From assembly GCA_964581115.1 (NCBI GenBank), contig CAZOMY010000001.1, positions 325,190 to 389,189 of the forward strand: a stretch of DNA of 64,000 bases, in the 5' to 3' direction. The position numbers were made by a program, and so were the translations under genes. Numbering within the stretch: position 1 is the stretch's first letter; each line of letters starts with the position of its first letter. Source of the stretch: an uncultured Ignavibacteriaceae bacterium. Its GTDB lineage: Bacteria; Bacteroidota; Ignavibacteria; UBA10030. Of the stretch, positions 18,693 through 36,260 are shown piece by piece. The notes under the pieces are model-generated. The model worked only from the letters and a program-made list of their open reading frames with translations, did not search any database and was not told where the DNA came from.

Positions 18693-18755
18693 GGGGCTGG
18701 CGGCCGGCCGTGTGGACCGGACCGCATGAAAAGGTAGGAGTTCTGCGGTGAACTG

Positions 18756-19976: not shown

Positions 19977-19983
19977 GGAACAC

Positions 19984-20008
19984 AAAAAAAGGCCGCCGAC
20001 GGCGGCCT
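19984..20008 (-). terminator. Rho-independent terminator after the response-regulator gene
   Basis: On the minus strand: GGCCGCCG-tc-GGCGGCC followed by TTTTTTT. It lies 26 bp after the 20034 stop and directly upstream of the MFS ATG. Confidence 0.6.
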
Positions 20009-20033
20009 CGGGGCATCCGTGCACCCGGATCGG

Positions 20034-20444
20034 TCATTTCTTCTTCTTCAACTTGTCGGCGAACAGCTGTGCCACTTTCTCGATATCGTATCCGACCTTG
20101 GGAAGATAGAACCCGCCGTGCTTTTCAACCATCGCCTTGAGTGTATCGTACGCGTCGGCACTGCAGAAGAAGGTGGGCGTTCCCCGGTTGGGCCCCTCCT
20201 TCTTGGCCAGTTGCAGCAGCGCAATGCCGGGAAGGTGGCCCTTGAGGTTCGTATCCTTGAAGTCGTTGTCCAGTATGATCAGGTCGAACGACTCCGACTT
20301 GATCTTGGCCCATGTCTCGACGCTGGTGGCCGTCTCAACGATGGCGATCTCATCTTCGATGATCGCCGTCGCCACCTCGAGCGCGAAGCCGTGAGATTTG
20401 CGCTGGCCTTCGTCGTCGTCGGCGATGAGTACTTTGTAGGGCAT
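20034..20444 (-). CDS. Single-domain response regulator (CheY-like receiver) with a lysine-rich tail
   Basis: 136 aa. MPYKVLIADDDE holds the acidic pocket. A phospho-acceptor-like D is present in LIILDNDF. A conserved K region is present. It ends in KLKKKK. No output domain follows the receiver. Confidence 0.8.
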   Translation of the reverse strand: MPYKVLIADDDEGQRKSHGFALEVATAIIEDEIAIVETATSVETWAKIKSESFDLIILDNDFKDTNLKGHLPGIALLQLAKKEGPNRGTPTFFCSADAYDTLKAMVEKHGGFYLPKVGYDIEKVAQLFADKLKKKK

Positions 20445-20544: not shown

Positions 20545-22293
20545 TCACGGCTTGGCGTAGACCCTGCGGCCACCGATGTAGGTCGACTCGACCTTCGTGT
20601 CGAGGATGCGCTGGGGCGTCCTCTCGTCAAACGCATCCGACAGCACGATGAAATCGGCAAGTTTTCCGGCCGTGAGACTTCCCTTCTGCGACTCCTCGAA
20701 CGCCGCGGTGGCTGCCCACGTCGTATAGCCCTTGAGCACCTCGGCCAGTGTCATGCGCTCGCCCGCGTACCAGCCTCCGTCGAACACCGATGGATCGACG
20801 ATCCCCGCGTCGGACAGCTCGAAACGTTCGCTCGTCAGGTCGGCCGCCGAGCGCGGCTTTCCTTCGGCATCGCGGCGGGTGATCGCTGCGTAGACCCCCA
20901 GTAGGGGATTCGGGTACTCGACCGGAAAATCGGAACCGCACGGAATGATGACGCCGGTCGAGAGGAGCGACCTCCACGCATAGGCGCCTTTGGACCGCCG
21001 GTGGCCGAGCCGGGCCTCTGCCCAGTACATGTCGGAGGTGCAATGCGTCGGCTGCATGGAAGGCAGTACGCGCAGCTTCGCAAACCTCCCGATATCGTCG
21101 GGATGCAGCACCTGGGCATGCTCGACCCGCAGGCGGTGGTCTCGTGCCCCCGTCGCATTGATCGCCCGCTCATAGACGTTGAGCACGATCGAGTTGGCGC
21201 GGTCGCCGATGGCATGCGTGCAGACCTGGAACCCATGCTGCAACGCTTCGGTCACCGAAACGGTCAATTCCTGCTCGTTCGTGACCGTCAGTCCTCGATT
21301 CGCCGGATCGTCGGCATACGGCTCGATCAATGCCGCTCCGCGAGACCCGAGTGCGCCGTCGGCGTACAACTTGAGCGCGCGGACCGTCAGACGGCTGCGC
21401 CCGAAGCCGATGAGCGGACCCTCGACCTTGAAGCGCTCCCAGGTCGGTCCAGGTCCTCCAATCGCGGCATAGATTCGCATCTGAAGACGGTCCGATTCGA
21501 TGAGCCGGCGGTAGGCCGCAAGGTCGGTCGAGTCCACTCCCATGTCATGCACGCCGGTCAGGCCGAGCGAAAGGCATTCCTGCTGTGCCGTCAGGATCGC
21601 CTCTTCGAGCTCAGCATCGCTCGGAGGCGGCACGTGTAGGGCGACAAGCGACTCTGCGTTGTCGATAAGGACGCCCGTCGGGTTGCCTTGCGCATCTCGG
21701 ACGATCTTCCCGCCATCCGGGTCGGGCGTGGCCCGAGTGATCCCCGCGATCTCGAGTGCCCGCTTGTTCACCCAAAGCGCATGGCCATCGATCCGGCTGA
21801 GGACGACCGGATGGTCGGAGGCGATCTTGTCGAGCGTTCGGTGGTGCGGGAAGGCCCTAGTCGGCCACAGGTTCTGGTTCCATCCGCGCCCTCGGATCCA
21901 TTGCCCCTTCGAAGAGCGCCGGACGCGTTCCGCCACCCGCTCGGCCGCAGCCTCAGCGCTCGGAGCCCCGACGAGGTCTACCGTCATCCGGGCGATGCCG
22001 AGCGAAATGAAATGCGCATGCGCATCGATCAGCCCGGGAAGCACGGTCTTCCCCTGCAGGTCCACTACACTCGGCGCGGTGAACCGGCGACGGATCTCGG
22101 TGGTCGTACCGACGCCGACAATGCGGTCACCGACAATGGCCAAGGCCTCGGCATCAGGCTGTTCGTCGTCCATGGTCAGCAGACGACCGTTCATGTAGAT
22201 AGCGTCGGCCTCTTGTGGTATCCACCACCAGACAGCAACCGCGACGAGCAAGAGTGCGATGAGAAGAACGACAATGCGGGATCGGTTGTTCAT
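20545..22293 (-). CDS. Amidohydrolase-family (Amidohydro_3-like) metal-dependent hydrolase with an N-terminal membrane anchor
   Basis: 582 aa. The N-terminal TM is IVVLLIALLLVAVAVWWW. The first metal-binding strand is the HxH motif LPGLIDAHAHF. The later HAIGDRA/HCT regions are typical of the amidohydrolase 3 family. Confidence 0.8.
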   Translation of the reverse strand: MNNRSRIVVLLIALLLVAVAVWWWIPQEADAIYMNGRLLTMDDEQPDAEALAIVGDRIVGVGTTTEIRRRFTAPSVVDLQGKTVLPGLIDAHAHFISLGIARMTVDLVGAPSAEAAAERVAERVRRSSKGQWIRGRGWNQNLWPTRAFPHHRTLDKIASDHPVVLSRIDGHALWVNKRALEIAGITRATPDPDGGKIVRDAQGNPTGVLIDNAESLVALHVPPPSDAELEEAILTAQQECLSLGLTGVHDMGVDSTDLAAYRRLIESDRLQMRIYAAIGGPGPTWERFKVEGPLIGFGRSRLTVRALKLYADGALGSRGAALIEPYADDPANRGLTVTNEQELTVSVTEALQHGFQVCTHAIGDRANSIVLNVYERAINATGARDHRLRVEHAQVLHPDDIGRFAKLRVLPSMQPTHCTSDMYWAEARLGHRRSKGAYAWRSLLSTGVIIPCGSDFPVEYPNPLLGVYAAITRRDAEGKPRSAADLTSERFELSDAGIVDPSVFDGGWYAGERMTLAEVLKGYTTWAATAAFEESQKGSLTAGKLADFIVLSDAFDERTPQRILDTKVESTYIGGRRVYAKP

Positions 22294-22347
22294 GACAGGT
22301 CGGTCGGAGTTGTGGTTTCCATGGCTACCCCCAGGTGGGCCTTTGAC

Positions 22348-24099
22348 TCACGCAATAAGGCGGATGCGGCCGACTCGACGGTTCAACCACCACGCAGCAA
22401 CAACGACAACCCCACCGAAGAGGGTCGCCCTCCACGCGTCGCCCAGAATGAGCGAACCGACACCGAACAACGCCCCATAGATCAAGACGACGCCGGCGAT
22501 CCAGCTCGACAGGAGGATGCCGTGATCTCGGTCGCCTTGCACGTCCGGCGCCAGCGCCTGGATCCGCTTCCACCCGGCCCCTCCGGGATGGACCCGGCGG
22601 TAGAATGCCAGCAGGTGTCGGTCGTCCACGGGTCGCGTGGCGAGCGTGACCGCCAGCCATACAGCCGTGGTAATGCCGACGATCACGAACAGGGATCCCG
22701 GGAACGCCATCGGCCACCAAAGCTTCAAGGCCCCAGTCACGACCAGCGGCGAGATCATCGCGGCGATCTCCGACCATGCGTTGATGCGCCACCAGAACCA
22801 ACGCAGAATAAGCACGAGTCCAAGACCGGCGCCCGCTTCGATGATAAATGACCACGCTCCCGAGATCGTGTCGATGACCTGCGTCACGACCACCGAGACG
22901 GCCATAATAACGAGCGTCGTGATGCGAGACACGGCGACGAGGTTGCGTTCAGTTGCATCGGGCCGCATGAACCGCTTGTAAAGGTCGTTGATGACATATG
23001 ATGCCCCCCAGTTCAACTGCGTTGCCAACGTGGACATGTACGCGGCGAAGAAGGAAGCCACCAGCAGGCCCTTCAGCCCCGTCGGCAGGAAGTCGCGCAT
23101 CGCATAGACGTATCCGAGCTTCTTGTCGGCGGGTGCGAGGTCAGGGTACAGGATCAAGGTCGCCAAGCCGACCAGGATCCAGGGCCACGGACGAACGCAG
23201 TAGTGGGCGATCGTGAACCAGAGCGTCGCGAACAGAGAGTGCCTTTCATCTTTCGCCGCCATCATGCGCTGGGCAATGTAGCCGCCGCCGCCAGGTTCGG
23301 CTCCCGGGTACCACGAAGCCCACCATTGGACGCCAATGAAGGCAATGAACGCCCCCGCACTCAAGGCCATGGCGCCCGCAACTCCTTCCTGCAATCCCAC
23401 GTCGGAAATGGAGGGCGTAAAGGCGAAGGCCCAATCGGGCAGTTGTCGCGTCAGTCCGTCGATCCCCCCGACCTGGGGAAGGTCAAGGACAATGACAGCC
23501 AGAACGATCGTGCCGGTCATGGCGAGAATGAACTGGATCGCGTCGGTCACGGCCACGCCCCACATGCCCGATGTCGCCGAGTAAACGGCGGTGATGAGCA
23601 TCGCACCGACGACGTACCAGATCACCTCCGTACGGGGAATCCCGAACATCCCTTCGATGATGGCAGCCATGGCAACGTTCACCCAGGCCATGATGACACA
23701 ATTCATGAAGATGCCCAGGTAAAGCGAACGAAAGCCTCGAAGGAAGGCCGCGGGCTTTCCAGTGTAGCGCAGTTCGGCGAATTCGACGTCGGTGAGGATA
23801 CCGGCCCGACGCCACAATCGTGCAAAGAAGAAGACAGTAAGGACCGAGCCGACGACGAAGTTCCACCAGAGCCAGTTGCCCGCAATGCCGTTGCGAGCGA
23901 CAAGCTCTGTGACGGCCAGCGGAGTATCCGCTGCGAAGGTCGTGGCGACCATGGATGTACCGGCCAGCCACCACGGAAGATTCCTCCCTGAAAGGAAGAA
24001 TTCATGGATATCTTTGCCCGCGCGCCGGGCATAGTAGAGACCGATCGCAGCGCTCAGGATAAAATACACGGCGAGGATCGTCCAATCGATGATATGCAT
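22348..24099 (-). CDS. Sodium:solute symporter (SSF) family transporter
   Basis: ~583 aa with ~13 TM segments. The N-terminus MHIIDWTILAVYFILSAAIGLYYARRAGKDIHEFFLSGRNLPWWLAG is the classic SSF start. The ATG at 24099 was verified. The ORF extends upstream to 24186. Confidence 0.85.
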   Translation of the reverse strand: MHIIDWTILAVYFILSAAIGLYYARRAGKDIHEFFLSGRNLPWWLAGTSMVATTFAADTPLAVTELVARNGIAGNWLWWNFVVGSVLTVFFFARLWRRAGILTDVEFAELRYTGKPAAFLRGFRSLYLGIFMNCVIMAWVNVAMAAIIEGMFGIPRTEVIWYVVGAMLITAVYSATSGMWGVAVTDAIQFILAMTGTIVLAVIVLDLPQVGGIDGLTRQLPDWAFAFTPSISDVGLQEGVAGAMALSAGAFIAFIGVQWWASWYPGAEPGGGGYIAQRMMAAKDERHSLFATLWFTIAHYCVRPWPWILVGLATLILYPDLAPADKKLGYVYAMRDFLPTGLKGLLVASFFAAYMSTLATQLNWGASYVINDLYKRFMRPDATERNLVAVSRITTLVIMAVSVVVTQVIDTISGAWSFIIEAGAGLGLVLILRWFWWRINAWSEIAAMISPLVVTGALKLWWPMAFPGSLFVIVGITTAVWLAVTLATRPVDDRHLLAFYRRVHPGGAGWKRIQALAPDVQGDRDHGILLSSWIAGVVLIYGALFGVGSLILGDAWRATLFGGVVVVAAWWLNRRVGRIRLIA

Positions 24100-24299
24100 G
24101 ACAGTATGCTGATTCGTCAGGGCGGATCGAACAGGAGGGTGCGGGGGCGAGCTTGGGCGTGCCGTCGGCGACGGCAGAATGTACATGATGGCCCCCCAAC
24201 AAGCAATGCGTGATTCTTCTCACGTTCTTTCTTGCCGATCAGCCATGAATTCCTTATCTTCCACACACTTTTTCCCAAGTTCCGTCATCCACTGACAAA
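24100..24299. promoter_or_regulatory. Divergent promoter region between the symporter gene (minus) and the GH38 gene (plus)
   Basis: A 200-bp noncoding, relatively AT-richer spacer lies between two divergently oriented starts. Individual -35/-10 or -33/-7 elements were not confidently assigned. Confidence 0.35.
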
Positions 24300-27200
24300 A
24301 TGGCAATCGAACTCCTCGATCAGATCCTTGGCCATGTAAGGAATGCGATCCATCGGCAGCGTTATCCCCTGCTCGATTGGCGCATGAAGGAAGGGATCAT
24401 TCCGGGTGCGGAGCGTCCCGACTTCAAGGAAAAGGGATGGACCGATATTCGCGTGCCATTCGAATGGGGACGGTATGACAAGACGGTCTGGTTTCGGAGC
24501 GTATGGACCGTTCCGGAGGGCTCGACCGGCAGGACGGTGGGCGTCCGTCTCTCGTTCCCGGAGGCCCAACTGTACGTGAACGGCGAGCCGTTTCACGGCC
24601 TCGACACGAATCACTGCGAAGTGATCCTTACGGAGAGGGCGAGGCGGAATCAACGTTTTCAGCTTGCGGTTGAAGCCTACAGCGGACGGACCGAACAGCA
24701 CCACCAGTTCTCCGTTGCCGAATGCGTCGAAATTGATACAACGGCGCGCACGCTCTATTACGGGTTGAAGTTGCTGCAGGAGCTGACGAAGACCCTTGAT
24801 CATTCGAGCGAAGAATTCGCCGCTGTCAAGGAACTCATCCGCCGGACGCTGATCTACCTCAAGTACTTCGCCCCTGACGGCGAGGAGTATCCCAACGCCA
24901 TCGGCCGCGCGCTCCAATTCCTTCGCTCGGCCATTGGCACGGAGTTCCGGACGTCTGTTCCGGGACTCATTCATCTCGCGGGCCAGTCGCACATCGACGT
25001 CGTCTGGCTCTGGAAGCTTGCGGAAACGGAACGGAAGAACGGACGAACCTTCTCGACGGTCCTGCGCCTGCTGGAGCAGCACCCCGCCTTCTCGTATTCC
25101 CAGAGCCAGCCATTCCTGTATCATCAGGTAAAGCGGCGAACACCGCGCTTGTTCAACGAGATCAAGACGCACGTCGCTTCCGGTCGGTGGGAAGCGGTCG
25201 GTCCCATGTGGGTGGAACCCGACTGCAACATCCCATCGGGTGAATCGCTCGTGCGTCAGCTGATCCACGGCAGTCGCTTCTACCGACAGGAGTTCGACCG
25301 CTCCTCTGAAGTGCTGTGGCTTCCCGACACTTTCGGGTACAGCTGGGCGCTTCCGCAGATCCTGAAGAAGTCGGGCGTGCCCTACTTCTTTACAACCAAG
25401 TTGCGCTGGAACGATACGACTGTCTTTCCGCACACGTCGTTCTGGTGGCAGGGGATCGACGGATCGCGCGTGCTCGCGCACATTCCGCCGCTCGGACTGG
25501 AAGCGCTTGTGACGCCGAAGGATCTGATCAGGACCGCCAAGGAGTTCGGCGACGATCCCGATCCGCGGCCCGTGATGCAAACCTTCGGCTACGGCGACGG
25601 CGGCGGCGGACCGACCACCGAACAGGTGGAGACGGCGCAGTTCCTGACGTCCATGCCAGGATTGCCGATGGCCCAGATGTCGACTCCCACGACCTTCTTC
25701 AAGGACCTCGAAACGCGGGCCGACGGGCTGCCGGTCTGGGAAAAAGAGTTGTATCTCGAAAAGCACCGAGGCACGTACACGACGCACGCGCGCGTGAAGA
25801 AGCTGCACCGACAAGCCGAGCGCGCGATGTATCTCGCGGAATTGACGGCCGTTTTGCGTTCGACGCTCCCCGGCATTGCGCCGGTGCCGTACCCGACCAA
25901 AGAGCTTGACGCCCTGTGGAAGTCGCTGCTGACGAACCAGTTCCACGACATCGTCCCCGGTACGGCGATCAAGGAGGCCATGGACGAGGCCACCGCCGAT
26001 CTCGAACGCATCACCACGAGCGCTACGGCCATGACGCTCAAGGCGCTTGGCGGTCTGATGGAGAAGCGCTCGGCAAAGGGACCTTCGACCTTCACGGCCT
26101 TCAACCCGCTCGCCTTCCATCGCTCAGCCTACGTCGAAGTTGACGTCGTCGGCTCCGCCCCGCACTGGACCGTCCGGTCGGCCTCGGGCGAGCAGCTTGA
26201 GTCGCAGGTCTTGGAACGCGCAAAGTCGCACGTGCGCCTCCTTGTCCATCTGCCTCACATCGCCCCATTGGGAGCCGTGGCATTTGTCGTCTCGCCGTCG
26301 GAAGAGCCGACGCAACCGACGGTCAACGGTTGGAAGTTCGCCCTGAAGACCGTCGAGACACCGCGATTGCGTTTGCGGTTTGACAACAAAGGTGGCATCA
26401 GCTCGATCTACGACAAGACCGCACGTCGTGAGTTCGTCCAAAAAGGCAAGAGGGCGAATGCCCTCATGACGGCCCGGGACCTTCCGAAAGAATGGGAGGC
26501 CTGGGACCTCGAAGGGGACTTCGACCGGCGACGGACCGACCTCTTCGCCTTCAAAGGGGCGAAGGTCGTCGAACAGGGCCCGCTACGTGCAACGATCCGG
26601 CACGAGTACCGTACCGAGAACGGCTCGGTGATCGCGCAATCGATCCGACTCTATCATCGCTCTCCGAGGATTGAAGTCGAGAATCACGTCAAGTGGAAGG
26701 AGCAGCACACGATGCTGAAAGTGGCCTTCCCCGTCGCCGCGAAGGCCACCTCGGCCACCTACGAGATCCAGTTCGGAGCCGTCGAACGCGCATCACGTTC
26801 GAAAGACCCGGCCGAGAAGGCAAAGTTCGAAGTGCCCGCTCAACAATGGGCCGCCGTCGGCGACGGCAAGACGGGTGTGGCGATCTTGAACGATTCGAAG
26901 TACGGCTACGACTGCCGGGACAATCATTTGCGGTTGACGCTACTTCGGTCTCCCAGATTTCCTCACCCTGTAACGCCTCACAATCAGACCGACACGCACT
27001 GGACGGACATCGGCGAGCATGATTTCACCTACGCCTTCTTCCCCTTTTCCGGAGACTGGCGGTCGGCGGGCATCACGGCCGAGGCCCGAGGGTTGAACGT
27101 CCCGGTCATCGTCCTGCCCGGGACGCCGGCCAGGGCGATCCCCTCGTTCGCGAGCCTCAACAAGCCGACGATCGTGCTTTCGGCCCTGAAGGGGGCCGAA

Positions 27201-27419
27201 GACGGCGACGGCATCGTGATGCGCTTGTACGAATCGACGGGCGTCGCGACCGATGCCACGGTCACATTTGGACGCTCCCCGTCCCAATGCGAAGAGACCG
27301 ACCTGCTCGAGCGTCCCACGAAGGACCTTCCGGTGAAGTCGGGAAAGCTCCCACTGCGATTCAAGCCTTTCGAGATCAAGACGGTTCGAGTACGATTCGC
27401 CGGTCGGAAGAAGAAGTGA
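24300..27419 (+). CDS. Glycoside hydrolase family 38 alpha-mannosidase
   Basis: 1039 aa. The GH38 N-terminal catalytic region has GQSHIDVVWLW and the later WLPDTFGYS. The central and C-terminal beta-sandwich domains are of a length typical for bacterial GH38 enzymes. The ATG was verified. Confidence 0.88.
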   Translation: MAIELLDQILGHVRNAIHRQRYPLLDWRMKEGIIPGAERPDFKEKGWTDIRVPFEWGRYDKTVWFRSVWTVPEGSTGRTVGVRLSFPEAQLYVNGEPFHGLDTNHCEVILTERARRNQRFQLAVEAYSGRTEQHHQFSVAECVEIDTTARTLYYGLKLLQELTKTLDHSSEEFAAVKELIRRTLIYLKYFAPDGEEYPNAIGRALQFLRSAIGTEFRTSVPGLIHLAGQSHIDVVWLWKLAETERKNGRTFSTVLRLLEQHPAFSYSQSQPFLYHQVKRRTPRLFNEIKTHVASGRWEAVGPMWVEPDCNIPSGESLVRQLIHGSRFYRQEFDRSSEVLWLPDTFGYSWALPQILKKSGVPYFFTTKLRWNDTTVFPHTSFWWQGIDGSRVLAHIPPLGLEALVTPKDLIRTAKEFGDDPDPRPVMQTFGYGDGGGGPTTEQVETAQFLTSMPGLPMAQMSTPTTFFKDLETRADGLPVWEKELYLEKHRGTYTTHARVKKLHRQAERAMYLAELTAVLRSTLPGIAPVPYPTKELDALWKSLLTNQFHDIVPGTAIKEAMDEATADLERITTSATAMTLKALGGLMEKRSAKGPSTFTAFNPLAFHRSAYVEVDVVGSAPHWTVRSASGEQLESQVLERAKSHVRLLVHLPHIAPLGAVAFVVSPSEEPTQPTVNGWKFALKTVETPRLRLRFDNKGGISSIYDKTARREFVQKGKRANALMTARDLPKEWEAWDLEGDFDRRRTDLFAFKGAKVVEQGPLRATIRHEYRTENGSVIAQSIRLYHRSPRIEVENHVKWKEQHTMLKVAFPVAAKATSATYEIQFGAVERASRSKDPAEKAKFEVPAQQWAAVGDGKTGVAILNDSKYGYDCRDNHLRLTLLRSPRFPHPVTPHNQTDTHWTDIGEHDFTYAFFPFSGDWRSAGITAEARGLNVPVIVLPGTPARAIPSFASLNKPTIVLSALKGAEDGDGIVMRLYESTGVATDATVTFGRSPSQCEETDLLERPTKDLPVKSGKLPLRFKPFEIKTVRVRFAGRKKK

Positions 27420-28099
27420 CCCCCGCCCCCTTGATCCCCCGCGGCCTTGTGGTCTCCTGCCAGGCCGAAGAGGGAAGTCCGTTCAACGCCCCGGATTTTA
27501 TCGTTGCTTTCGCCCGAGCGGCTGAGTTGGGCGGGGCTGTGGCCGTTCGACTGCGCGACGTCGAGAATGTCGCCGCGGTCCGATCGCGCATCTCCATCCC
27601 GATCATCGCCTTGACGAAGGGTTCGTTCGCCGACGGCAGCGTGCTCATCACTCCCGACGAGAGCGACGTGGCACGGCTTTTCGATGCCGGAGCCGACATG
27701 GTGGCCCTCGACGTGACGGACCGCACCGGCCCGGACGGTCGACACCGACTGGAGACGTTCCGGCGTGTGCGGGCGGATTTCCGCCGGCCCTTGATGGCAG
27801 ACATTGCGACGTACGAGGAAGGGATCAAGGCCGCCGAGGCAGGAGCCGACGTGGTGGGGACCACATTGTCGGGTTACACTCCGTCAACGGCGAAGGCGAG
27901 AAGGGATGTTCCCGACTTCGAGCTGATCGAACGGCTGGCCAAGGCGCTGCCGGGAAAGGTGGTGGCGGAGGGAAGGATCTGGACGCCCGAGCAAGCGGCG
28001 CTGGCGTTTCGTTTGGGTGCGGCGTCCGTCGTGGTGGGAACCGCCATCACGCGGCCCGTGGACATCGTGCGGCGCTTTGTTTCAGCGCTCAACCGCTGA
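27416..28099 (+). CDS. nanE: Putative N-acetylmannosamine-6-phosphate 2-epimerase (NanE family)
   Basis: VVSCQAEEGSPFNAP...VAVRL...IPIIALTK matches the NanE pattern (LIVSCQAL..EPL). The start was chosen at GTG 27416, which overlaps the GH38 TGA (GTGA). No in-frame ATG precedes the conserved N-terminus. Confidence 0.8.
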   Translation: MTPAPLIPRGLVVSCQAEEGSPFNAPDFIVAFARAAELGGAVAVRLRDVENVAAVRSRISIPIIALTKGSFADGSVLITPDESDVARLFDAGADMVALDVTDRTGPDGRHRLETFRRVRADFRRPLMADIATYEEGIKAAEAGADVVGTTLSGYTPSTAKARRDVPDFELIERLAKALPGKVVAEGRIWTPEQAALAFRLGAASVVVGTAITRPVDIVRRFVSALNR

Positions 28100-30142
28100 C
28101 CGGTCGAAGACCATCGCCGCCGCTCCTAAGAGTCCGGCCTCTTCGATCATTGAGAAGACCAGCCGTACCCCCGCGCGCTGGACGCGCATGGTCCGTTCCG
28201 CGAACGCCTTTTGGAGAGCCGCACCGAACGCCTCCCCGCTCTTCAGCACGTTCCCTCCCACGACGACAACCTCCGGATTGAGGGCATTCACAAGCCCGGC
28301 CAGCGCCGTACCGAGCGCCGCTCCCCCCCTTGTGAGGACCTCCAGAGCCGCGCGGTCTCCTTCGCCTGCCAATACTCCAAGCGCCGTCGCCGACGCCTCA
28401 AGACCCGCTTCCCTAGCCATGCGAGCCAGACCGGAACCGGAGGCGTAGAGCTCGACGCATCCCACATTGCCGCAGGAACATCGAGGACCCCGAGCATCGA
28501 CGCTGATGTGGCCGATCTCTCCGGCGGCATTCGACGTGCCGCGTACGAGTCTGCCATTCACGATCAGTCCACCGCCGATCCCCGTGCCGACGTGGACGAC
28601 GATGGCATGCGATGCGGCCCGGAGCAGGCCGAATCGGGTCTCCGCGACCGCCGCACACTTCCCGTCGTGATCGACCCACGCCCGGAGCCCCGTCTCGCGT
28701 GCGAGTAACATCGCCAGCGGTACATCGTGCCATCCCTCCAGGAGCGCGGTCGAGTCCACAACCACACCATTCTCATGGTCCACGCGCCCGCCGGTGCTCA
28801 CCCCCACCCCGCGTGATCGGCGGCTTCCTGCCCGACCTATGGCGTGTCGCACCAATCCAAGCAGCGCCGCAATGATCTCCTCCCTCGAACCCGGCGTCCT
28901 GACCGATTCCCGCTCGAGCACCTCGCCCTGAAGTGTCACAAGCGCCGCGCGGAGTTGAGTGCCGCCGAGGTCGACCGCGATGGCCACGTCGGATTGCAGC
29001 TCCTGAGCGACATTCATAGCTTTGGGCCGGATGGGCGGTTTCAGACGATAGTCGCCCTTGACGAAGTGATAGATGTCCTCGTAGAATTCCCGCTCTTGCG
29101 CATCTTCGTGACGAAACATCTTCTTGAGCGAGCCGACACCGTGGAAGTGGGCGCATGCCGCGTCGAGCATGTATCCATACGTCACGCCTCCGTTGAGATA
29201 ATCGCGGAAGCGTGAGTGGCGTTCTCCGGTGATCGCGATCGGCTCATCCAACTCGAGATAGTACTCCATCTCGATGCCGGCATAGCGTTCCATCGCAGCG
29301 CGCGCCGCTCCCTCGATCGTCTTGCCCGACCGGTAGAACATGTAGTTCGGCTGGAGGAAGGCAAGGTCGAAGTAGTACGAGCGATAGTCGTCCAGCAAGT
29401 GGAGGTTGTACATCGCCCAGAAAGGGATCCAACTAGTGATCAGTCCGTGTTGATGGACGTGTGGTCGGAGCTCCTTCAACAGCCAGTGGTCGTCCACGTC
29501 CCAGCTGCGGTAGACGGACTCGAACATCCAATACACGCCGAGCAGATGGACATGACGGTGGCTTTGGGATCTCCATCGACGCACGATCTCATCGACGAAC
29601 CATCGTACCGCGGTCAGCCGTTGTTGTGTGGCCCTCATCAGGTTCTGGCCGCCGATGCCGAAATCGAGATCCGGTCCGTCCGGCGTCAGTCGACCCCAAG
29701 CACGCTGCGAGATGTGCGGATACGGCAACATGAGGATGACATTGCGCTTGCGGTCGGGGACCGTTCCGATCTCCTTTGCGCATGCTTCGATCGCGCGATC
29801 CAGCGTCTCCACCGCGCCCTCAGGACCCAGGTAGAACTCCAGCAACTCCTCCCAATCGCGCTTTGTGGCCGGACGTGGAGAGACCATGGCGAAGAAGTCC
29901 CCTTCGCCCGACATCGACGTGCCGAGATTCACGTCGGCGCAGAAATCACGCTGTTCGGCCGCCTTGACGTTCAGAAAGAGGAACGAATCGAACAGCCAAT
30001 CGTCCGACCGGCCGCTGGCGTCCTGATGCGCAACGTAGTAGCGCAGATCGTCGACAGTCCAGGGACGCTCGAAGCCTCCGTACATCAGCATCAGATGCCG
30101 GAGGTAATTCGTCGAAGGGTGCGATGGAGGGAAATAGGGCAT
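28082..30142 (-). CDS. Fusion protein: an uncharacterised ~390-aa N-terminal domain plus a C-terminal ROK-family sugar kinase (NanK/glucokinase-like)
   Basis: The C-terminal ~300 aa have the ROK signature (IAVDLGGTQLRAALV, GTGIGGGLIVNGRL, CSCGNVGCVELYASG). The N-terminal domain (MPYFPPS...HLLGVYWMFESVY...GIEMEYYLELD) was not assignable to a named family. The ATG at 30142 was verified. The 3' end overlaps the convergent nanE by 18 bp. Confidence 0.8.
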   Translation of the reverse strand: MPYFPPSHPSTNYLRHLMLMYGGFERPWTVDDLRYYVAHQDASGRSDDWLFDSFLFLNVKAAEQRDFCADVNLGTSMSGEGDFFAMVSPRPATKRDWEELLEFYLGPEGAVETLDRAIEACAKEIGTVPDRKRNVILMLPYPHISQRAWGRLTPDGPDLDFGIGGQNLMRATQQRLTAVRWFVDEIVRRWRSQSHRHVHLLGVYWMFESVYRSWDVDDHWLLKELRPHVHQHGLITSWIPFWAMYNLHLLDDYRSYYFDLAFLQPNYMFYRSGKTIEGAARAAMERYAGIEMEYYLELDEPIAITGERHSRFRDYLNGGVTYGYMLDAACAHFHGVGSLKKMFRHEDAQEREFYEDIYHFVKGDYRLKPPIRPKAMNVAQELQSDVAIAVDLGGTQLRAALVTLQGEVLERESVRTPGSREEIIAALLGLVRHAIGRAGSRRSRGVGVSTGGRVDHENGVVVDSTALLEGWHDVPLAMLLARETGLRAWVDHDGKCAAVAETRFGLLRAASHAIVVHVGTGIGGGLIVNGRLVRGTSNAAGEIGHISVDARGPRCSCGNVGCVELYASGSGLARMAREAGLEASATALGVLAGEGDRAALEVLTRGGAALGTALAGLVNALNPEVVVVGGNVLKSGEAFGAALQKAFAERTMRVQRAGVRLVFSMIEEAGLLGAAAMVFDRSAVER

Positions 30143-30159
30143 GCCATCATTTGAAAAAG

Positions 30160-30265
30160 CGTTTCACAGAGGTCCACAGAGGAACACAGAGATCCACAGA
30201 GAGCATCTCGTTTGAGTACTCGAGCAATGTTCGGTGGATCTCTGTGTGATCTCAGTGTAACGCTT
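30160..30265. repeat. Heptamer-built palindromic intergenic element A
   Basis: Four direct CACAGAG copies at 9-10 bp spacing (CACAGAGgtCCACAGAGgaaCACAGAGatCCACAGAGag) are followed by a 37-bp spacer. The perfect inverted copy GTGGATCTCTGTG (reverse complement of CACAGAGATCCAC) follows. Then come further CACTGAG-like units. Confidence 0.6.
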
Positions 30266-30272
30266 CATGGTG

Positions 30273-32459
30273 TCATTTTGCGGCGATCACGATGACTGCC
30301 GGTTCCGAGCCCGGATGGCCGTCCGACTCCGCCCGCACCAGCGTCAGGATCTGGTCCTTCGTCGCGACGCCGCACAGATCGACGATGCGATTCGAGATCA
30401 AAACGAAAACGTCGGGCGTGAGGCCTCCTGCGTCGCCGTACACCGTCGCCGACTCGACGAGCGCGCCTACGCGCGAACTCAATGACTGCACCGCGGCGGC
30501 CTCGACGATCGCGTTCGACAGCTTCAGCCGGATGACGCCGTCCGTTCCGACCACGCGCACCGGATGCCGCTCCATCGTCACCCAGCCGAACAACCTTGCC
30601 CGGCGGTAGACCCCCCGAAAGACGCGCAAGAATTCCGTCGAGCCGACGGCCTCGACGGGCTCAGCGCCCTGGCCCATCGACAGCCCGGCTATCCTTGCGA
30701 TCTCTTCGTCCGGAAGCCGGCTGCGGGCCAGATCGCGAGTTCGAAGTTCAGGCACACCTGTCGCAACGGCGATTAGGCGCTTCTGCTTGGTATCGACCTC
30801 GACACGGACGTCAATGGAATCGGCCGAGGCGCCCATTGCTGCGACCGACGCCGCCGCGTCAGCACGTATGCGCAGCAGATCCGCCTCGGTCGGTGAGATC
30901 ATGCTGCGTTCGACGGTGTCACGGATCATGCCGAGCGCCGCTCCGATGGCGGAGATCACTTCGGCGTGCGCCGTGATGGTGTACGGAAGTCCGGATTGTC
31001 GGGCCGATTCCGGAACGACGGCCTCCGCCCCTCCACCACCCCCCACCAACGACAGGAGCTCTCGGTCGAGTTCGTATTCGCGGATGAACTGCTCGACGAC
31101 ACGAGAGACCTTGCGAGCCGCCACCGCGAGGACCGTTGCGGCCCACGTCGACGGTTCCTGACGCACGAACGGACGCAGGATCTCGCCAAGCCGCTTCACC
31201 GACTCGGCATGTCCTCTGGCGTATCCGGTCGGCGTTCCGGTCAGGTTGAGGGCGTCGGTGGTCGTCACCGCCAGTGACGGCTTCCGTCCATCCTTCGGTA
31301 CCAGCACCGCGTAGTCGCCCGGATCACCCGGCCGGGGTTGAAGGCTCTGCGGTTCGACATCGGCCAGGTGCTGAGGATCGCTGAAACTCGGATAGTGCAG
31401 ACCCGCGATGTGGGCGCTGCGAGGGCCCACATCAACCACCGCGCCTTGCTTCCAACGAACCATCGACCCTCCGCCGATGCCGACGGTGCGAATGTCCAGC
31501 GTCTTGACAAACAGCCGGTGACCGCCAACCTCCGAGGTGCGGACCATCGGCCGTCCATTCTTGATAATAGAGATGTCGGTACTCGTGCCGCCGACCTCGA
31601 GGAACAGTCCGTCGGAGACCCGGGCGTACATGAGTGCCGCGGCCACGCCCGCTGCCGGTCCGGAGAGCATCGTGAGAATGGGACGCCGGCGCATCTCCTG
31701 AATATCCATGATGCCGCCGTCGCTGCGCATGATCATCAGGGGCGTGGTGATGCCCGCCCGGCGGACCGACTGTTCCGTCATGTTCGCCGCCTCGAGCATC
31801 TTCGGCAACATTGAGGCATTGATCACGGCCGTTCGCGTGCGTGCCCTCAATCCGTAAAGCTGAGAGATGTCCGATGCCGCGGTGACCAGAAGCCCTCTCG
31901 CCTGTAGCGCCTCAGCAGCCGCGTGCTCGCGTGACCGGTCATCCACACCGAACGCCTCGCTTACGACGAAGACCTCAGCACCCTCACCGCGCAATTCTTC
32001 CGCCGCCTGCACGATCGCTTCAGGCCGTACGCCGTCGGTGACATCGCAGTAACGGTGGAGCGTCTCGAGGAATTTGCCGGGGGCCAATTCGATGCGACCC
32101 ACCTTCGTCTGGCGACGTGCCACCCAGCCGTCGCCGCTTCGTCCAAGACCGATGATCCCGACGCGAGCCACGTCTCCTTCCAGAAGCGCGTTCGTCGCCT
32201 GGGTCGTGCTGTGGGCGATCAGCGACACGTCCGACGGCCGGATCTTCGACTTCCGGAGCAATTCCTGCATGACCTCCACCACACCCCGAGCCACCCCCTC
32301 TTTGGCGGCGTGCGTCGTTGGGACGACAGCCGTTCCAAGCAGCTTCAACGTCGATGCCTCGAGCGCGACGGCGTGCGTGAACGTGCCGCCGACGTCGATG
32401 CCGATCTTCACCTGGCGGCGAGTACGCCTTGCTTTCCTGTTGATGGGCCTGGAGGTCAT
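30273..32459 (-). CDS. Hydantoinase/oxoprolinase-family protein (Hydantoinase_A-like ATPase)
   Basis: ~729 aa. The N-terminal ASKHA motif is KIGIDVGGTFTHAV, and a second motif is LFLEVGGTSTDISII. The start was chosen at the verified ATG 32459 (MTSRPINRKARRTRRQVKIGIDVGGT). The ORF-track start at 32495 is a GTG lying inside repeat element B. Confidence 0.85.
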   Translation of the reverse strand: MTSRPINRKARRTRRQVKIGIDVGGTFTHAVALEASTLKLLGTAVVPTTHAAKEGVARGVVEVMQELLRKSKIRPSDVSLIAHSTTQATNALLEGDVARVGIIGLGRSGDGWVARRQTKVGRIELAPGKFLETLHRYCDVTDGVRPEAIVQAAEELRGEGAEVFVVSEAFGVDDRSREHAAAEALQARGLLVTAASDISQLYGLRARTRTAVINASMLPKMLEAANMTEQSVRRAGITTPLMIMRSDGGIMDIQEMRRRPILTMLSGPAAGVAAALMYARVSDGLFLEVGGTSTDISIIKNGRPMVRTSEVGGHRLFVKTLDIRTVGIGGGSMVRWKQGAVVDVGPRSAHIAGLHYPSFSDPQHLADVEPQSLQPRPGDPGDYAVLVPKDGRKPSLAVTTTDALNLTGTPTGYARGHAESVKRLGEILRPFVRQEPSTWAATVLAVAARKVSRVVEQFIREYELDRELLSLVGGGGGAEAVVPESARQSGLPYTITAHAEVISAIGAALGMIRDTVERSMISPTEADLLRIRADAAASVAAMGASADSIDVRVEVDTKQKRLIAVATGVPELRTRDLARSRLPDEEIARIAGLSMGQGAEPVEAVGSTEFLRVFRGVYRRARLFGWVTMERHPVRVVGTDGVIRLKLSNAIVEAAAVQSLSSRVGALVESATVYGDAGGLTPDVFVLISNRIVDLCGVATKDQILTLVRAESDGHPGSEPAVIVIAAK

Positions 32460-32469
32460 TGGAGGAGAA

Positions 32470-32560
32470 TTTGCCACAAAGAGCACAAAGGGCACAAAGA
32501 AGTGGGAATTAGGCGATAGTTCAACTTATGGCCTTTTGTGCTCTCTGTGTTCCTTGTGGC
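32470..32560. repeat. Heptamer-built palindromic intergenic element B (related to element A)
   Basis: CCACAAAGagCACAAAGggCACAAAGaagtgg is followed by a 28-bp spacer. Then comes GCCTTTTGTGCTCTCTGTGTTCCTTGTGGC, which is the reverse complement of GCCACAAGGaaCACAGAGagCACAAAAGGC. These are the same CACARAG heptamers at helical-turn spacing, arranged as an imperfect long palindrome. Confidence 0.6.
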
Positions 32561-32575
32561 CAAGCTTGTCTTGTG

Positions 32576-34063
32576 TCAGTAGAACAGCGCTCCGGCGATC
32601 GACAGCCCCAGCAATGCCGCCACCCAGGCATACGGCAGCGTGCGCCACATGATCTCGTTCACGTCGATGCGGACCTCGTTCGCCACCCAGACGTTCTGCG
32701 TATTGGTCGGGTCGCTGATACCCTGGATGAGGCCGAGCGACATGAGGATCCCCATCACCGCTCCGGCAGGAACTCCCGTCGCCAGCAGGATGCCACCGAC
32801 GCCATAGCCCAATCCCCAGACGTTCAGCGGACCGCGGTAAAGCGCCAAAGGTCCGAGGAGGGTGAAGAGCAGCACATAGCTCCAGCCGGACGACGGCACG
32901 ATCAACGAGAGCAACGGCTTCATGTCGGTCATGACCGGCCATTCAACGATCGCTCGGGCCGCCGCGTCGACATACCATGCACGACCGGGGCCTGTCGTGG
33001 TCGGCCCGAGGATGGCGCTCAACAGCATACCGATCCCGACCATCAACACCACAGCCGGTATGACGCTCGAGCTTCCTTCGATCATCGCGCGCGTCACCAT
33101 GTTGAGCGTGCCCCGCCGCAAGGTCACGATGATGCCGTAGACGAACGCCGCTATGAACGCCGCAATGAACGGAACGTCGAACATGAGGATCAAGATCAGC
33201 GGAACGAGCGGCGTAGCATACGCCCAAGCCGTGACCGATGAGACTGGACCGGAGGCACGGGTCCGGAATGCGCGTACGATCGACGACAATATCGCGTATC
33301 CCAACAGCGCGAGGATCGTCCATCGGAGCGGTGTCATGAGCCACGCTGTACCAATGTCGTTGAACGTCCATGCCAGCGCTGCCATGGCGACGCCGGTTCC
33401 GATCAGGCCCAGCACAGACGTACGGATCGTCCGAAATCGAACAGACCCACTCCGGAGCAACTCGAGGGTCAGAAATCCCACGGCAACGACCGCCGTTGTT
33501 CCGAAGAGGGCCATGGCATAAGACGACACCGCAGCGTCATCTAACCGCAGCACCGACCGATAGACCGCCCAGTTGTTCGCGTTCAGAAGTCCGCCAAGAC
33601 TGATGCCGACCAGCAGGACCCCGGCCGCCACGTGCTCACGTACGCCTAGCGACAGCAGGATCGGCAGGATCACCGCTCCGACCATGATCACTGCCCCGAG
33701 GCCGCCGATCGTAGTGAAGAGCAGCGTGACGATCGACAACATCACCAGCGCAACAAGCAACGGATTGTCGCCGGCAAACTCGGCCCCGCGCCGCACGATC
33801 TGTTCGGCCACGCCGGATCGCTGCAACAATTGGCTGACCATCCCGCCGAAGAAGGAGATGACCATCGGTTCGGTCAGTCGGAGGGCGCCGTCCGCGAGGA
33901 TGCCGGCGCTGACATCGGTCCACCCGAGGTGCCCGCTGGCGACCTGGACCAGCCCGATGCCAAAGGCCATCAGCGGAAGCGCCAGAACCGCCGGAAGCTT
34001 CCGGAGGAACATGAGCGTCGCGGCGGCGACAAAGATCAGCAAAATGAGGAAGGCGTTGAGCAT
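32576..34063 (-). CDS. Polytopic membrane permease (family unassigned; TctA/DctM/GntP-like size and topology)
   Basis: 495 aa, almost entirely hydrophobic, with ~12-14 TM segments and Gly-rich re-entrant-like stretches. The ATG at 34063 was verified. A family-level assignment was not possible by eye. Confidence 0.6.
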   Translation of the reverse strand: MLNAFLILLIFVAAATLMFLRKLPAVLALPLMAFGIGLVQVASGHLGWTDVSAGILADGALRLTEPMVISFFGGMVSQLLQRSGVAEQIVRRGAEFAGDNPLLVALVMLSIVTLLFTTIGGLGAVIMVGAVILPILLSLGVREHVAAGVLLVGISLGGLLNANNWAVYRSVLRLDDAAVSSYAMALFGTTAVVAVGFLTLELLRSGSVRFRTIRTSVLGLIGTGVAMAALAWTFNDIGTAWLMTPLRWTILALLGYAILSSIVRAFRTRASGPVSSVTAWAYATPLVPLILILMFDVPFIAAFIAAFVYGIIVTLRRGTLNMVTRAMIEGSSSVIPAVVLMVGIGMLLSAILGPTTTGPGRAWYVDAAARAIVEWPVMTDMKPLLSLIVPSSGWSYVLLFTLLGPLALYRGPLNVWGLGYGVGGILLATGVPAGAVMGILMSLGLIQGISDPTNTQNVWVANEVRIDVNEIMWRTLPYAWVAALLGLSIAGALFY

Positions 34064-34068
34064 GAACG

Positions 34069-35460: not shown

Positions 35461-35540
35461 CAAACGATCCGTGGAGTGTGCGACGAGGTGAGACCATTGA
35501 ACGACCCGACAAGGTCGCCAAGGAACAGCCCAACATCAAC

Positions 35541-36260
35541 TCACAGCCGCGCGTGGAAGCCCATCCGGACGTCGAGCATCTGCAGGCCGCTGACGTTCTC
35601 CATGTCGAGCGCAAGCGCGGGCCAGAGCTCGCCGATGATCATCGTGTATCGCGCGCCAAGCGAGAACCAGAGGGGTTCAAACACCCGCACGCGCACGTCG
35701 GCGCCGAGGTCGAATCCGCCGCTCCATTCTTGCTGTCGGTTCTCCGGAACGTTCAGGATCGCCAGAGTCACGGGAGTTCCCAGCGAATCGGCAACGAGCG
35801 TCCCCCGAAAGGCGCCACGCAGGCTCGTCCAACGGTAGAAGCCGAATCCGAAGGCGCCATCGGCTTCGACGAACTCGCCGGCGAACAGTGGGAATGTCCC
35901 TGTCGCAAGCAGTCCGACCGCCTGTACCGAGACCTCAAGCCCGGTGAGCGGCAGGCCGAAGACCTGTTCGACCCCGGCGATCTCCTTCTTCCTCTTCAGC
36001 GCCAGGGCCTCGCGGTTCTCCTCCGTGAACGAGAGCCACTCCAGACGAGCCCCCCAACGAGGCTTGTCATCAGTGGCAGGCTGGACCAGAAGCGCACCCG
36101 ACCATCCGGGCTTGACACGATCGGATAAGCCACCAAGCGGAATGGCGATGCCGCCTTCGATGCCAACCACGGACGGCGACAAGATGATCTGGGCCCGTCC
36201 GTCAGGAGACGCCAGAGCGAGCCACAAGAGCGTGGCGAGGGACCTCAAGAAAGTCTTCAA
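35541..36260 (-). CDS. Small outer-membrane beta-barrel protein (hypothetical)
   Basis: It has a signal peptide (MKTFLRSLATLLWLALASPDGRAQ) and alternating amphipathic beta-strand patterning. The start is TTG and overlaps the upstream TGA (TTGA). It is the last gene of the co-directional operon. Confidence 0.5.
   Translation of the reverse strand: MKTFLRSLATLLWLALASPDGRAQIILSPSVVGIEGGIAIPLGGLSDRVKPGWSGALLVQPATDDKPRWGARLEWLSFTEENREALALKRKKEIAGVEQVFGLPLTGLEVSVQAVGLLATGTFPLFAGEFVEADGAFGFGFYRWTSLRGAFRGTLVADSLGTPVTLAILNVPENRQQEWSGGFDLGADVRVRVFEPLWFSLGARYTMIIGELWPALALDMENVSGLQMLDVRMGFHARL

Follow-up and report, generated by a model that had tools for sequence, protein, structure and literature searches.

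The 64,000-nucleotide window analyzed here, from contig CAZOMY010000001.1 of an uncultured Ignavibacteriaceae bacterium, encodes a fusion protein of 686 amino acids (aa) that joins a domain of the Pfam family DUF4855 to a sugar kinase of the ROK family, and the gene lies beside one for NanE, the 2-epimerase of N-acetylmannosamine 6-phosphate (ManNAc-6-P). What is new in this arrangement is an uncharacterized upstream enzyme fused to the kinase in an otherwise NanK/NanE-type amino-sugar pathway. We propose that the DUF4855 domain is a glycosidase that supplies N-acetylmannosamine (ManNAc) to the fused kinase and to NanE, a reading to which we give a probability of about one half. To our knowledge, ManNAc catabolism is known almost solely as the tail end of sialic acid use. 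The genes and domains at the center of this proposal, together with a neighboring sodium:solute symporter (SSF) and an alpha-mannosidase of glycoside hydrolase family 38 (GH38), are the following.

22348..24099, minus strand: SSF, an inner-membrane importer (PF00474, E=2e-39; 583-aa gene call)
24100..24299, no strand: divergent intergenic region between SSF and GH38, about 200 bp between the two starts
24300..27419, plus strand: GH38 alpha-mannosidase of the Ams1/MAN2C1 type, cytoplasmic, 1039 aa (GH38 N, mid, C and C2 Pfam domains)
27416..28099, plus strand: NanE, ManNAc-6-P 2-epimerase, 227 aa (PF04131 and NF002231; GTG start)
28082..30142, minus strand: DUF4855-ROK fusion protein, 686 aa (PF16147 and PF00480)
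28082..28981, minus strand: ROK sugar-kinase domain of the fusion, residues 388-686 plus the stop codon (Pfam ROK match at residues 388-679, 28106..28981)
28982..29068, minus strand: interdomain linker, residues ~359-387, low-confidence in the full-length model and probably flexible
29069..30091, minus strand: DUF4855 domain, residues 18-358, a predicted glycosidase-like (β/α)8 barrel (candidate catalytic residues E208, after β4, and E291/E293, in β7)

The original prediction for this region had described a symporter divergent from an alpha-mannosidase, a NanE start overlapping the mannosidase stop, and a convergent ROK fusion, and the map of open reading frames (ORFs), the profile searches and the sequence itself located all of them exactly where it had put them. 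In gaagaaGTGA (27410-27419), the GTG start of NanE (27416-27418) and the TGA stop of GH38 (27417-27419) overlap as GTGA. An independent gene call on the identical public contig L001 yielded the same 227-aa NanE, and the gene calls of both L001 and L002 retain this overlap. The 3' end of the fusion gene overlaps the 3' end of nanE convergently by 18 bp. A public sequencing run, assembled independently, yielded an identical 686-aa fusion, which belongs to a cluster of four sequences.

The NanE similarity proposed in the original prediction was confirmed by profile search, with 249 bits against the NCBIfam model NF002231 (curated cut-off, 189 bits; residues 8-226 of 227) and 181 bits against PF04131 (E=1.8e-53; cut-off, 27 bits). 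The best match in the PDB was NanE of Clostridium perfringens (4UTT, 153 bits), aligned from end to end, with the Lys of IIGIIKRNY opposite the Lys of IIALTKGSF and with the VSCQA, EGRI and AITRP motifs retained; we take this lysine and the motif residues to be catalytic or substrate-binding. Since a bona fide NanE stands beside the kinase, the simplest flow would be from ManNAc to ManNAc-6-P and on to N-acetylglucosamine 6-phosphate (GlcNAc-6-P).

The kinase half of the fusion agrees with this flow. Its ROK domain (PF00480, E=3.6e-57, 194.6 bits, residues 388-679), which includes CSCGNVGCVELYASG, contains both the ATP motif DxGxT, as DLGGT, and the zinc motif CxCGxxGC(x)E, as CSCGNVGCVE. The best PDB match was the ManNAc kinase domain of human GNE (2YHW; 178 bits, 39% identity), followed by 142 bits for an Enterococcus glucokinase and about 100 bits for bacterial NanK, and the best database matches outside the fusion clade are animal GNE proteins. 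In the human ManNAc kinase (hMNK), the ManNAc-coordinating residues are Arg477, Asn516, Asp517, Glu566, His569 and Glu588 (PMC5458393), and the window protein has five of these six. In a set of 23 fusion proteins, the same positions hold R in 22, N in 18 (H in 4), D in 22, E in 22, H in all 23 and E in 22. Furthermore, the GNE-type STGGRV motif is found in the fusion proteins and is missing from unfused ROK proteins of Bacillota. The similarity to GNE and the ligand residues thus point to a ManNAc-kinase-like domain, with ManNAc as its predicted substrate. As a side observation, the domain is closer to the animal GNE kinase domain than to bacterial NanK or glucokinases, and the fusion clade may be close to the bacterial lineage from which this GNE domain came, or the transfer may have run the opposite way.

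The N-terminal domain of about 390 aa, which had been described as belonging to no recognized family, is Pfam DUF4855 (PF16147), a catalogued domain of unknown function (E=1.7e-59, 202 bits against a cut-off of 27, residues 18-358, profile positions 3-312 of 313). A whole-library profile search put the size of this family at about 1,360 clusters at 50% identity. AlphaFold, using 19 sequences, modeled the domain as an eight-stranded (β/α)8 barrel with a predicted local distance difference test score (pLDDT) of 88.5 and a predicted template modeling score (pTM) of 0.90. The two stretches that the original prediction had likened to TIM-barrel strands, LLGVYWMFESVY and GIEMEYYLELD, do form strands of this barrel, namely β4 (residues 198-205), which is followed by E208, and β7 (residues 289-293), which bears E291 and E293. 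No solved DUF4855 structure was found, as PDB sequence and profile searches with the domain returned nothing below E=0.4. Foldseek retrieved only generic barrels from the PDB, tryptophan synthase α first, with template modeling (TM) scores of 0.34-0.44 that we judged uninformative, and alignment with hhalign to the GHL10 family protein encoded in the same window gave no relationship (probability, 1.9%). The predicted fold class is therefore clear, yet it has no close known family.

Residue conservation points to a catalytic role for the barrel. Among 147 representatives of the family, W97, G202, Y204, E208 (146/147), W238, P240, Q264, N266, E291 (144/147), E293 (146/147) and Y315 are essentially invariant, and secreted members share every candidate catalytic residue with the cytoplasmic clade to which the fusion belongs. 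In its large relatives, DUF4855 is combined with F5/8-type-C (CBM32-like) modules, dockerin, SLH repeats and FIMAH, and one of these proteins has a catalytic module of GH3. Together, the modeled barrel, the invariant glutamates and the modular relatives bear the signature of a carbohydrate-active catalytic module. According to the model, DUF4855 is probably a retaining glycosidase with its glutamates at the β4 and β7 positions. As regards the criterion for clan GH-A, no Asn precedes the putative acid/base E208, these positions being taken from the predicted structure and from strand counting. In the full-length model (pLDDT 87.1, pTM 0.73) the two domains are well folded and pLDDT falls below 50 at residues 376-380 of the linker, so that a fixed channel or interface between the two predicted active sites finds no support in it.

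A further trait of the cytoplasmic clade is an insertion of 27 residues after β2 (residues 66-92 of the fusion; window ~29867..29947, minus strand), absent from the secreted Bacteroidales-type members. Ten of its positions (A69, D70, N72, G74, E80, G81, D82, S88, P89 and P91) are invariant in 23/23 fusion proteins. The model of the insertion is of low confidence (pLDDT <50 at 76-81), and the segment may serve as a lid or as an extra subsite.

The fusion is a recurrent architecture. In a collection of 5.8 billion proteins, PF16147 and PF00480 are joined in 47 clusters at 90% identity, and those with a named source come from metagenome-assembled genomes of Bacteroidota, Ignavibacteriota, Elusimicrobiota, Planctomycetota and Kryptoniota; in-frame fusions are also present in Brocadiaceae and Gloeomargaritaceae contigs. 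The original prediction was to fall if its N-terminal domain proved to be an already described one routinely fused to ROK kinases. To the letter this is what we found, a Pfam family with 47 fusion clusters, but not in spirit, as the function of DUF4855 is undescribed. DUF4855 also exists unfused, in proteins of about 380 aa that are 43-68% identical.

Gene neighborhoods were compared in 80 genomic loci and several metagenomic ones by tblastn with every protein of the window locus, and the counts given here refer to 64 non-redundant loci of this DUF4855 clade, with NanE and ROK sought within ±10 kb. A ROK kinase is present in 27/64 loci (in 20 of them as an in-frame fusion) and NanE in 24/64, and the two occur together in 20/64, an odds ratio of 23.6 (p=2.6e-7, uncorrected for kinship among the 64 loci). 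This co-occurrence bears out the functional link between NanE and the kinase that had been proposed. Synteny of the locus holds down to 50-60% identity and across phyla, and a Planctomycetota contig again has GHL10, FAD_oxidored, a permease, a hydantoinase-like ATPase, DUF4855-ROK and NanE as a set. Bacillota encode DUF4855, NanE and ROK in individual genes that lie close together, for example in L041 (in the order DUF4855, NanE, ROK) and in L040. A Bipolaricaulota locus has the order ABC transporter, FAD_oxidored, DUF4855, SIS_2, BadF/BadG-type kinase, NanE, NagA, NagB, and here the BadF-type kinase is a non-orthologous replacement of ROK that keeps the pathway logic. NagA and NagB accompany the module in the homologous loci L049, L016 and L012, and consequently the route appears to end in ordinary amino-sugar catabolism. 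Thus, of the uncharacterized ManNAc route suggested in the original prediction, the route itself stands as the most economical reading, whereas its end is a conventional one.

The mannosidase and the symporter behave differently from this core. GH38 is linked in 10/64 loci, compared with 20/64 for ROK and NanE together, and SSF is syntenic in only 6/64; the pairing of mannosidase and NanE, which had been taken as the defining trait of the module, is not one, and GH38 and SSF are lineage-specific additions. The GH38 protein has N, mid, C and C2 domains (E=3e-80, 8e-24, 3e-58 and 1e-17, respectively), and its homologues match the Ams1-like_1st domain. Comparison of subfamilies placed it in the Ams1/MAN2C1 type, with 330-420 bits for the Ams1 chains 7vqo, 6lz1, 7dd9 and 5jm0 and 363-391 bits for four further alpha-mannosidase chains (7ufr-7ufu), against 46 bits for the GH38 of Streptococcus pyogenes. 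Its N-terminus, as read, lacks a signal peptide. A function as mannosylglycerate hydrolase (MngB) was rejected (NF007331, 131 bits against a cut-off of 1138 bits). The SSF ORF extends over 22348..24186, and its probable start is an internal ATG at ~24099, in agreement with the 583-aa call on L001. Between positions 22000 and 31000, a scan for sigma-70-type promoters and terminators, which does not model Bacteroidota-type promoters, gave no more sites than expected from shuffled sequence, and an Rfam scan of the whole window found zero RNA families.

Profile scans of the ORFs detected no NanA, sialidase, NagA or NagB in the 64-kb window, in agreement with the original prediction. Likewise, tblastn with Escherichia coli NanA (a query sequence entered by hand) had no match in the window and one DHDPS-family match among 87 related loci, a DapA-like sequence of 31% identity in L044, about 8 kb from the DUF4855 gene; Pfam revealed one further DHDPS-family ORF, adjoining DUF4855 in L035. 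A conventional sialic acid locus was rejected, as neither NanA nor sialidase occurs in the window or consistently in related loci. In the absence of these enzymes, the ManNAc would have to derive from a source other than sialic acid, and the kinase-fused DUF4855 is then the obvious candidate supplier. The ORF in L035 (Symbiobacteriaceae; 11784..13121) is NanA/DapA-like with an N-terminal extension of about 145 aa and lies downstream of DUF4855, with ROK upstream of DUF4855 and no NanE within reach; it is the sole locus hinting at a lyase partner.

The original prediction had treated positions 24100-30142 as a compact, self-contained module, but the fusion, NanE and GH38 prove to form the cytoplasmic end of a longer conserved locus, spanning about 30 kb (20545..50637), that resembles a polysaccharide utilization locus (PUL), and the strongest partners are the ATPase, permease and flavoprotein and the secreted GHL10 and NAGPA proteins. 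The minus-strand gene string has a ROK-type helix-turn-helix (HTH) regulator at its head and the DUF4855-ROK fusion at its end. Two of its proteins carry the tail of the type IX secretion system (T9SS). The remaining features of the locus are as follows.

20545..22293, minus strand: Amidohydro_3 metallo-hydrolase with an N-terminal membrane anchor or signal (PF07969, E=2.4e-110)
30273..32495, minus strand: hydantoinase-A/oxoprolinase-like ASKHA ATPase, 740 aa, no B subunit (PF01968, E=1.5e-56; PF05378, E=3.8e-26)
32576..34063, minus strand: IT-superfamily (CitMHS/GntP-like) permease, 495 aa, polytopic (from homologue names; a few homologues match PF03600)
34069..35463, minus strand: FAD-dependent oxidoreductase (flavoprotein), cytoplasmic (PF12831, E=1.8e-107)
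35541..43048, minus strand: uptake genes (outer membrane and periplasm), encoding signal-peptide proteins of 239 aa and 244 aa, a PorV-like protein (310 aa), a 696-aa protein and a TonB-dependent-type receptor of 1013 aa (Pfam; signal-peptide-like N-termini; synteny in L002, L008 and L009)
43038..47757, minus strand: T9SS-tailed protein of 545 aa, GHL10 enzyme with Golvesin_C and a T9SS tail (44558..46534) and ROK-family HTH regulator (46531..47757); the same trio adjoins DUF4855-ROK in L003
48226..50637, minus strand: GHL10 protein with NAGPA, a phosphodiester glycosidase (PF02638, E=1e-45; PF09992, E=1.4e-33)

The flavoprotein accompanies DUF4855 in 18/64 loci, including loci of Bipolaricaulota, Thermotogota, Bacillota and Planctomycetota, and the hydantoinase-like ATPase in 17/64, Planctomycetota included; as a trio with the permease they are found in 16-18/64 loci, with or without ROK and NanE. 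The best PDB matches of the ATPase, N-methylhydantoinase and 5-oxoprolinase, cover residues ~26-362 only. The 495-aa permease itself has zero Pfam or NCBIfam matches, and its homologues are named citrate transporter or H+/gluconate symporter-like, one of them (P0327) being fused to Hydant_A_N; to judge by these names it probably imports an anionic substrate. Our guess is that the trio would carry out an ATP-dependent step on an imported anionic sugar. GHL10 is present in 15/64 loci, and the true start of the GHL10-NAGPA protein of the window is, from its N-terminus, probably an internal Met near 50448. The TonB-type receptor combines CarboxypepD_reg, Plug and OMP_b-brl_3 domains, no SusD_RagB match was found among the uptake genes, and the adjacent 696-aa and two ~240-aa signal-peptide proteins have no Pfam match. 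The locus is PUL-like in its logic and does not appear to be a canonical SusC/D PUL. The Amidohydro_3 gene lies directly downstream of SSF, syntenic in L004, L008 and L009 and absent in L002; its product may take part in the pathway, perhaps as a deacetylase or amidase.

From this gene content a possible sequence of steps can be outlined. Secreted GHL10 and GHL10-NAGPA enzymes would fragment an extracellular amino-sugar glycopolymer with phosphodiester links, and the fragments would enter through the TonB-type receptor and then through the IT-type permease and the SSF in the inner membrane. In the cytoplasm, the DUF4855 domain would hydrolyze the imported oligosaccharide to release ManNAc, by a predicted retaining mechanism in which E208 would be the acid/base and either E293 or E291 the nucleophile. 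The fused GNE-like kinase would then convert ManNAc to ManNAc-6-P and NanE would convert this to GlcNAc-6-P, which would feed ordinary NagA/NagB catabolism. The Ams1-type GH38 and the SSF may handle alpha-mannosyl parts of the substrate, as a lineage-specific extension. This order of steps, like the hydrolytic release of ManNAc on which it turns, is one that we infer from domains and neighbors.

The identity of the substrate can be approached through the neighbors of DUF4855. The most plausible source of ManNAc is a bacterial cell-wall glycopolymer, such as the linkage unit of wall teichoic acid or related secondary cell-wall polymers. Wall teichoic acids are joined to peptidoglycan through ManNAc-β1,4-GlcNAc-1-phosphate, and several secondary cell-wall polymers contain β-ManNAc. 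DigH of E. coli belongs to GHL10. The same family includes Cwp19, a peptidoglycan lytic transglycosylase (PMC6016235), and GDPD (GlpQ) and calcineurin-like (PhoD) enzymes are known teichoic acid hydrolases (bioRxiv). In the Bacteroidales-type DUF4855 loci, NAGPA is present in 9/17 and GDPD in 4/17, together with GH3-SGNH esterase proteins and DUF6259, and this recurrence of NAGPA, GDPD and DUF6259 suggests phosphodiester-linked glycopolymers as the substrate. In the Bacillota isolate Fredinandcohnia humi, neighbors of a cell-wall type comprise an M55 D-aminopeptidase, a mandelate-racemase-family enzyme and an RpiR regulator. Consequently, a cell-wall glycopolymer would fit because it accounts for the amino-sugar end of the pathway, for the phosphodiester-cleaving partners and for the peptidoglycan-type partners. 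The Ams1-type mannosidase finds no obvious explanation in such a polymer, and GH38 may act on a mannose-bearing portion of the substrate, in this lineage only. We know of no enzyme described for the ManNAc-GlcNAc linkage disaccharide of teichoic acid. In the literature searched, no enzyme acting on ManNAc-glycosides was found described, the term N-acetylmannosaminidase did not occur, and no functional study of the degradation of the teichoic acid linkage unit was found.

Several observations weigh against DUF4855 as a source of ManNAc. The kinase scores far below the NanK equivalog models (133.5 against 450 bits for NF047821; 138.6 against 283 bits for PRK05082), so that, by these scores, it is not a member of the enterobacterial NanK equivalog, and the position of N516 is occupied by His in the window protein. 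No functional study of DUF4855 (PF16147, IPR032329) was found in the literature. Neither ROK nor NanE lies within ±10 kb in 33/64 loci, and in the same Ignavibacteria-type locus there are standalone DUF4855 genes, 64-69% identical, that are accompanied by GH38 but by neither ROK nor NanE. Either ROK and NanE are encoded elsewhere in such genomes or the product is not always ManNAc, and these standalone loci are the main observation that the ManNAc model leaves unexplained. Moreover, the linkage of the ATPase, permease and flavoprotein to DUF4855 is at least as strong as that of ROK and NanE, and the model does not explain the roles of this trio. Finally, we know of no common glycan that contains both alpha-mannose and ManNAc.

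These points have to be set against what other explanations can account for. The mannosidase suggests a route for free N-glycan-type oligosaccharides, in which GH38 would trim Man(n)GlcNAc to Manβ1,4GlcNAc, DUF4855 would split this core as a β-mannosidase or hexosaminidase, ROK would phosphorylate GlcNAc or mannose, and NanE would be peripheral. Enzymes of the Ams1/MAN2C1 group, to which this GH38 is closest, act on free oligomannose glycans; the GH38-NanE junction is translationally coupled here, and standalone DUF4855 with GH38 but without ROK or NanE does occur. We nevertheless regard this route as unlikely, since GH38 is confined to 10/64 loci while kinase and NanE track DUF4855 across phyla, GH38-free loci included, NanE is left without a role, and the kinase resembles ManNAc kinase above GlcNAc kinases and glucokinases. 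The fusion is also compatible with either order of steps, and the kinase might act first, phosphorylating O6 of the non-reducing ManNAc of an imported disaccharide in the manner of the β-glucoside kinase BglK; DUF4855 would then be a 6-phospho-glycosidase, comparable to MupG, that delivers ManNAc-6-P to NanE. Disaccharide-acting ROK kinases exist, the BglK family is among the profile matches, and the conserved 27-residue loop of the cytoplasmic clade, with its invariant D70, N72, E80 and D82, could form an extra subsite. However, the ManNAc-ligand residues of hMNK, a monosaccharide kinase, are conserved, R477 included, which we take to contact the anomeric end of the sugar, and secreted DUF4855 members with all the candidate catalytic residues cannot meet substrates phosphorylated by the kinase, both of which make a kinase-first order improbable.

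In another set of explanations, the barrel would make or modify the substrate of the kinase without hydrolysis, as a lyase or aldolase replacing NanA, a sugar isomerase or epimerase, a phosphorylase, or a sugar-1-phosphate phosphodiesterase. TIM barrels are catalytically versatile, and the top Foldseek matches in the PDB include tryptophan synthase α and psicose 3-epimerase, albeit with poor TM scores. The locus of F. humi resembles a nan cluster minus nanA (RpiR, NanE, ROK, ABC transporters and GFO/IDH/MocA enzymes), a DHDPS-family ORF adjoins DUF4855 in L035, and the phosphodiester-cleaving partners NAGPA and GDPD recur. On the other hand, architectures with CBM32-like modules, dockerin, SLH or GH3 are typical of glycan-cleaving enzymes, and the invariant positions hold acidic and aromatic residues, a pattern shared with glycosidases. 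In addition, K223, the one lysine invariant among close relatives, is present in 44/147 representatives family-wide, which argues against a class I aldolase; a NanA-like aldolase acting through this lysine was rejected on the same count. A non-hydrolytic barrel is therefore quite unlikely in our judgment. That the genes have no joint function, being neighbors by chance or, in the case of the fusion, a product of assembly or frameshift, might be supposed from the metagenome-type assembly of the window and from a promoter and terminator scan no richer than that of shuffled sequence. This possibility is effectively refuted by fusion recurrence and synteny: the identical 686-aa protein comes from an independent assembly, 46 further clusters keep the fusion in frame, synteny persists to 50-60% identity and across phyla, and the stop-start overlap is kept in L001 and L002. 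Release of ManNAc by a DUF4855 glycosidase thus remains our preferred reading.

A cultured member of Bacillota offers a ready experimental system for the DUF4855 family. The isolate F. humi has one signal-peptide and one cytoplasmic DUF4855 paralogue in a single locus (L040), with the following gene set.

81..20398 (L040): NanE, MR/MLE-family enzyme, four GFO/IDH/MocA oxidoreductases, M55 D-aminopeptidase, ROK, cytoplasmic DUF4855, RpiR, two ABC systems, signal-peptide F5/8C-DUF4855 and CE7-type esterase

Elsewhere in the window, 51048..63888 contains an apparent second glycan-uptake set downstream of the locus, with a GH27-type (Melibiase_2) protein bearing an Ig-like domain, two proteins of the outer-membrane receptor type and a T9SS-tailed BNR/sortilin-repeat protein of 1140 aa. 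An HNH endonuclease ORF of 211 aa (1276..1911, minus strand) lies between a tryptophanyl/tyrosyl-tRNA synthetase-type gene and chorismate synthase, in what is otherwise a housekeeping stretch.

If the proposal is correct, it would provide a second entry point to ManNAc catabolism besides sialic acid, and a function for a Pfam domain with its ~1,360 clusters, including loci of human-gut Bacteroides. It would also supply a missing step in the turnover of bacterial cell-wall glycopolymers (necromass), a large pool of carbon and nitrogen in soils, sediments and the gut. The same neighborhoods also draw attention to the hydantoinase-like ATPase, the permease and the PF12831 flavoprotein as three more co-conserved unknowns. 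A wider hypothesis, possible but in our view doubtful as a whole, is that DUF4855 founds a new glycoside hydrolase family whose kinase-fused cytoplasmic clade is an N-acetylmannosaminidase and which, with the GNE-like kinase and NanE, forms a sialic-acid-independent pathway of wide distribution. Through it, bacteria of the environment and the gut would obtain ManNAc from dead Gram-positive cells, either from the teichoic acid linkage unit or from secondary cell-wall polymers, and the ATPase, the IT-type permease and the flavoprotein would handle a further anionic sugar derived from the cell wall. The main proposal is directly testable with one recombinant protein.

It is important to consider how this locus relates to systems already described. 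With clan GH-A-like glycoside hydrolases and GHL10 (Cwp19, DigH), DUF4855 has no detectable sequence relationship, and no assigned CAZy family or activity was found for it. The range BT0438-BT0454 of Bacteroides thetaiotaomicron comprises BT0442 (DUF4855), DUF5009, two GHL10 proteins, a calcineurin-like phosphoesterase, SusC/D pairs and an MFS transporter (PMC10434189), where BT0442 appears solely in a transcriptome table. It has the same suite of uncharacterized families as loci of the L003 type; however, no NanE is listed in that gene range. Bacteroidales-type DUF4855 relatives (BT0442 not among them) share 26-31% identity, begin with signal-peptide-like sequences and lack a fused kinase. 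As in the degradation of wall teichoic acid by Bacillus subtilis (GlpQ, a GDPD, and PhoD), phosphodiester-cleaving enzymes, namely GDPD, NAGPA and calcineurin-like proteins, accompany DUF4855 genes, but the known pathway ends with removal of the polyol-phosphate chain, and the link to it is one that we infer.

The canonical nan cluster (nanA-nanT-nanE-nanK, of the E. coli, Staphylococcus and Clostridium type) shares with our locus a ROK-type ManNAc kinase and NanE leading to GlcNAc-6-P, a Na+-solute symporter nearby, and the RpiR-type regulators of the Bacillota versions of DUF4855 loci. In contrast, the window has no NanA or sialidase, and the upstream enzyme is a DUF4855 domain physically fused to the kinase. 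A formal parallel in design is animal GNE, the UDP-GlcNAc 2-epimerase/ManNAc kinase, in which a ManNAc-producing domain likewise stands N-terminal to a ROK ManNAc kinase, as proposed here. The two kinase domains, 39% identical, have the STGGRV and zinc-binding motifs and ManNAc-ligand residues in common. The N-terminal partner in the window is nevertheless an unrelated TIM barrel instead of a UDP-GlcNAc 2-epimerase, and its context is catabolic (NanE, transporters and secreted hydrolases), whereas GNE serves sialic acid biosynthesis. Consequently, if DUF4855 does release ManNAc, the fusion would be a bacterial parallel to the animal GNE design, with a ManNAc-producing enzyme joined to a ManNAc kinase.

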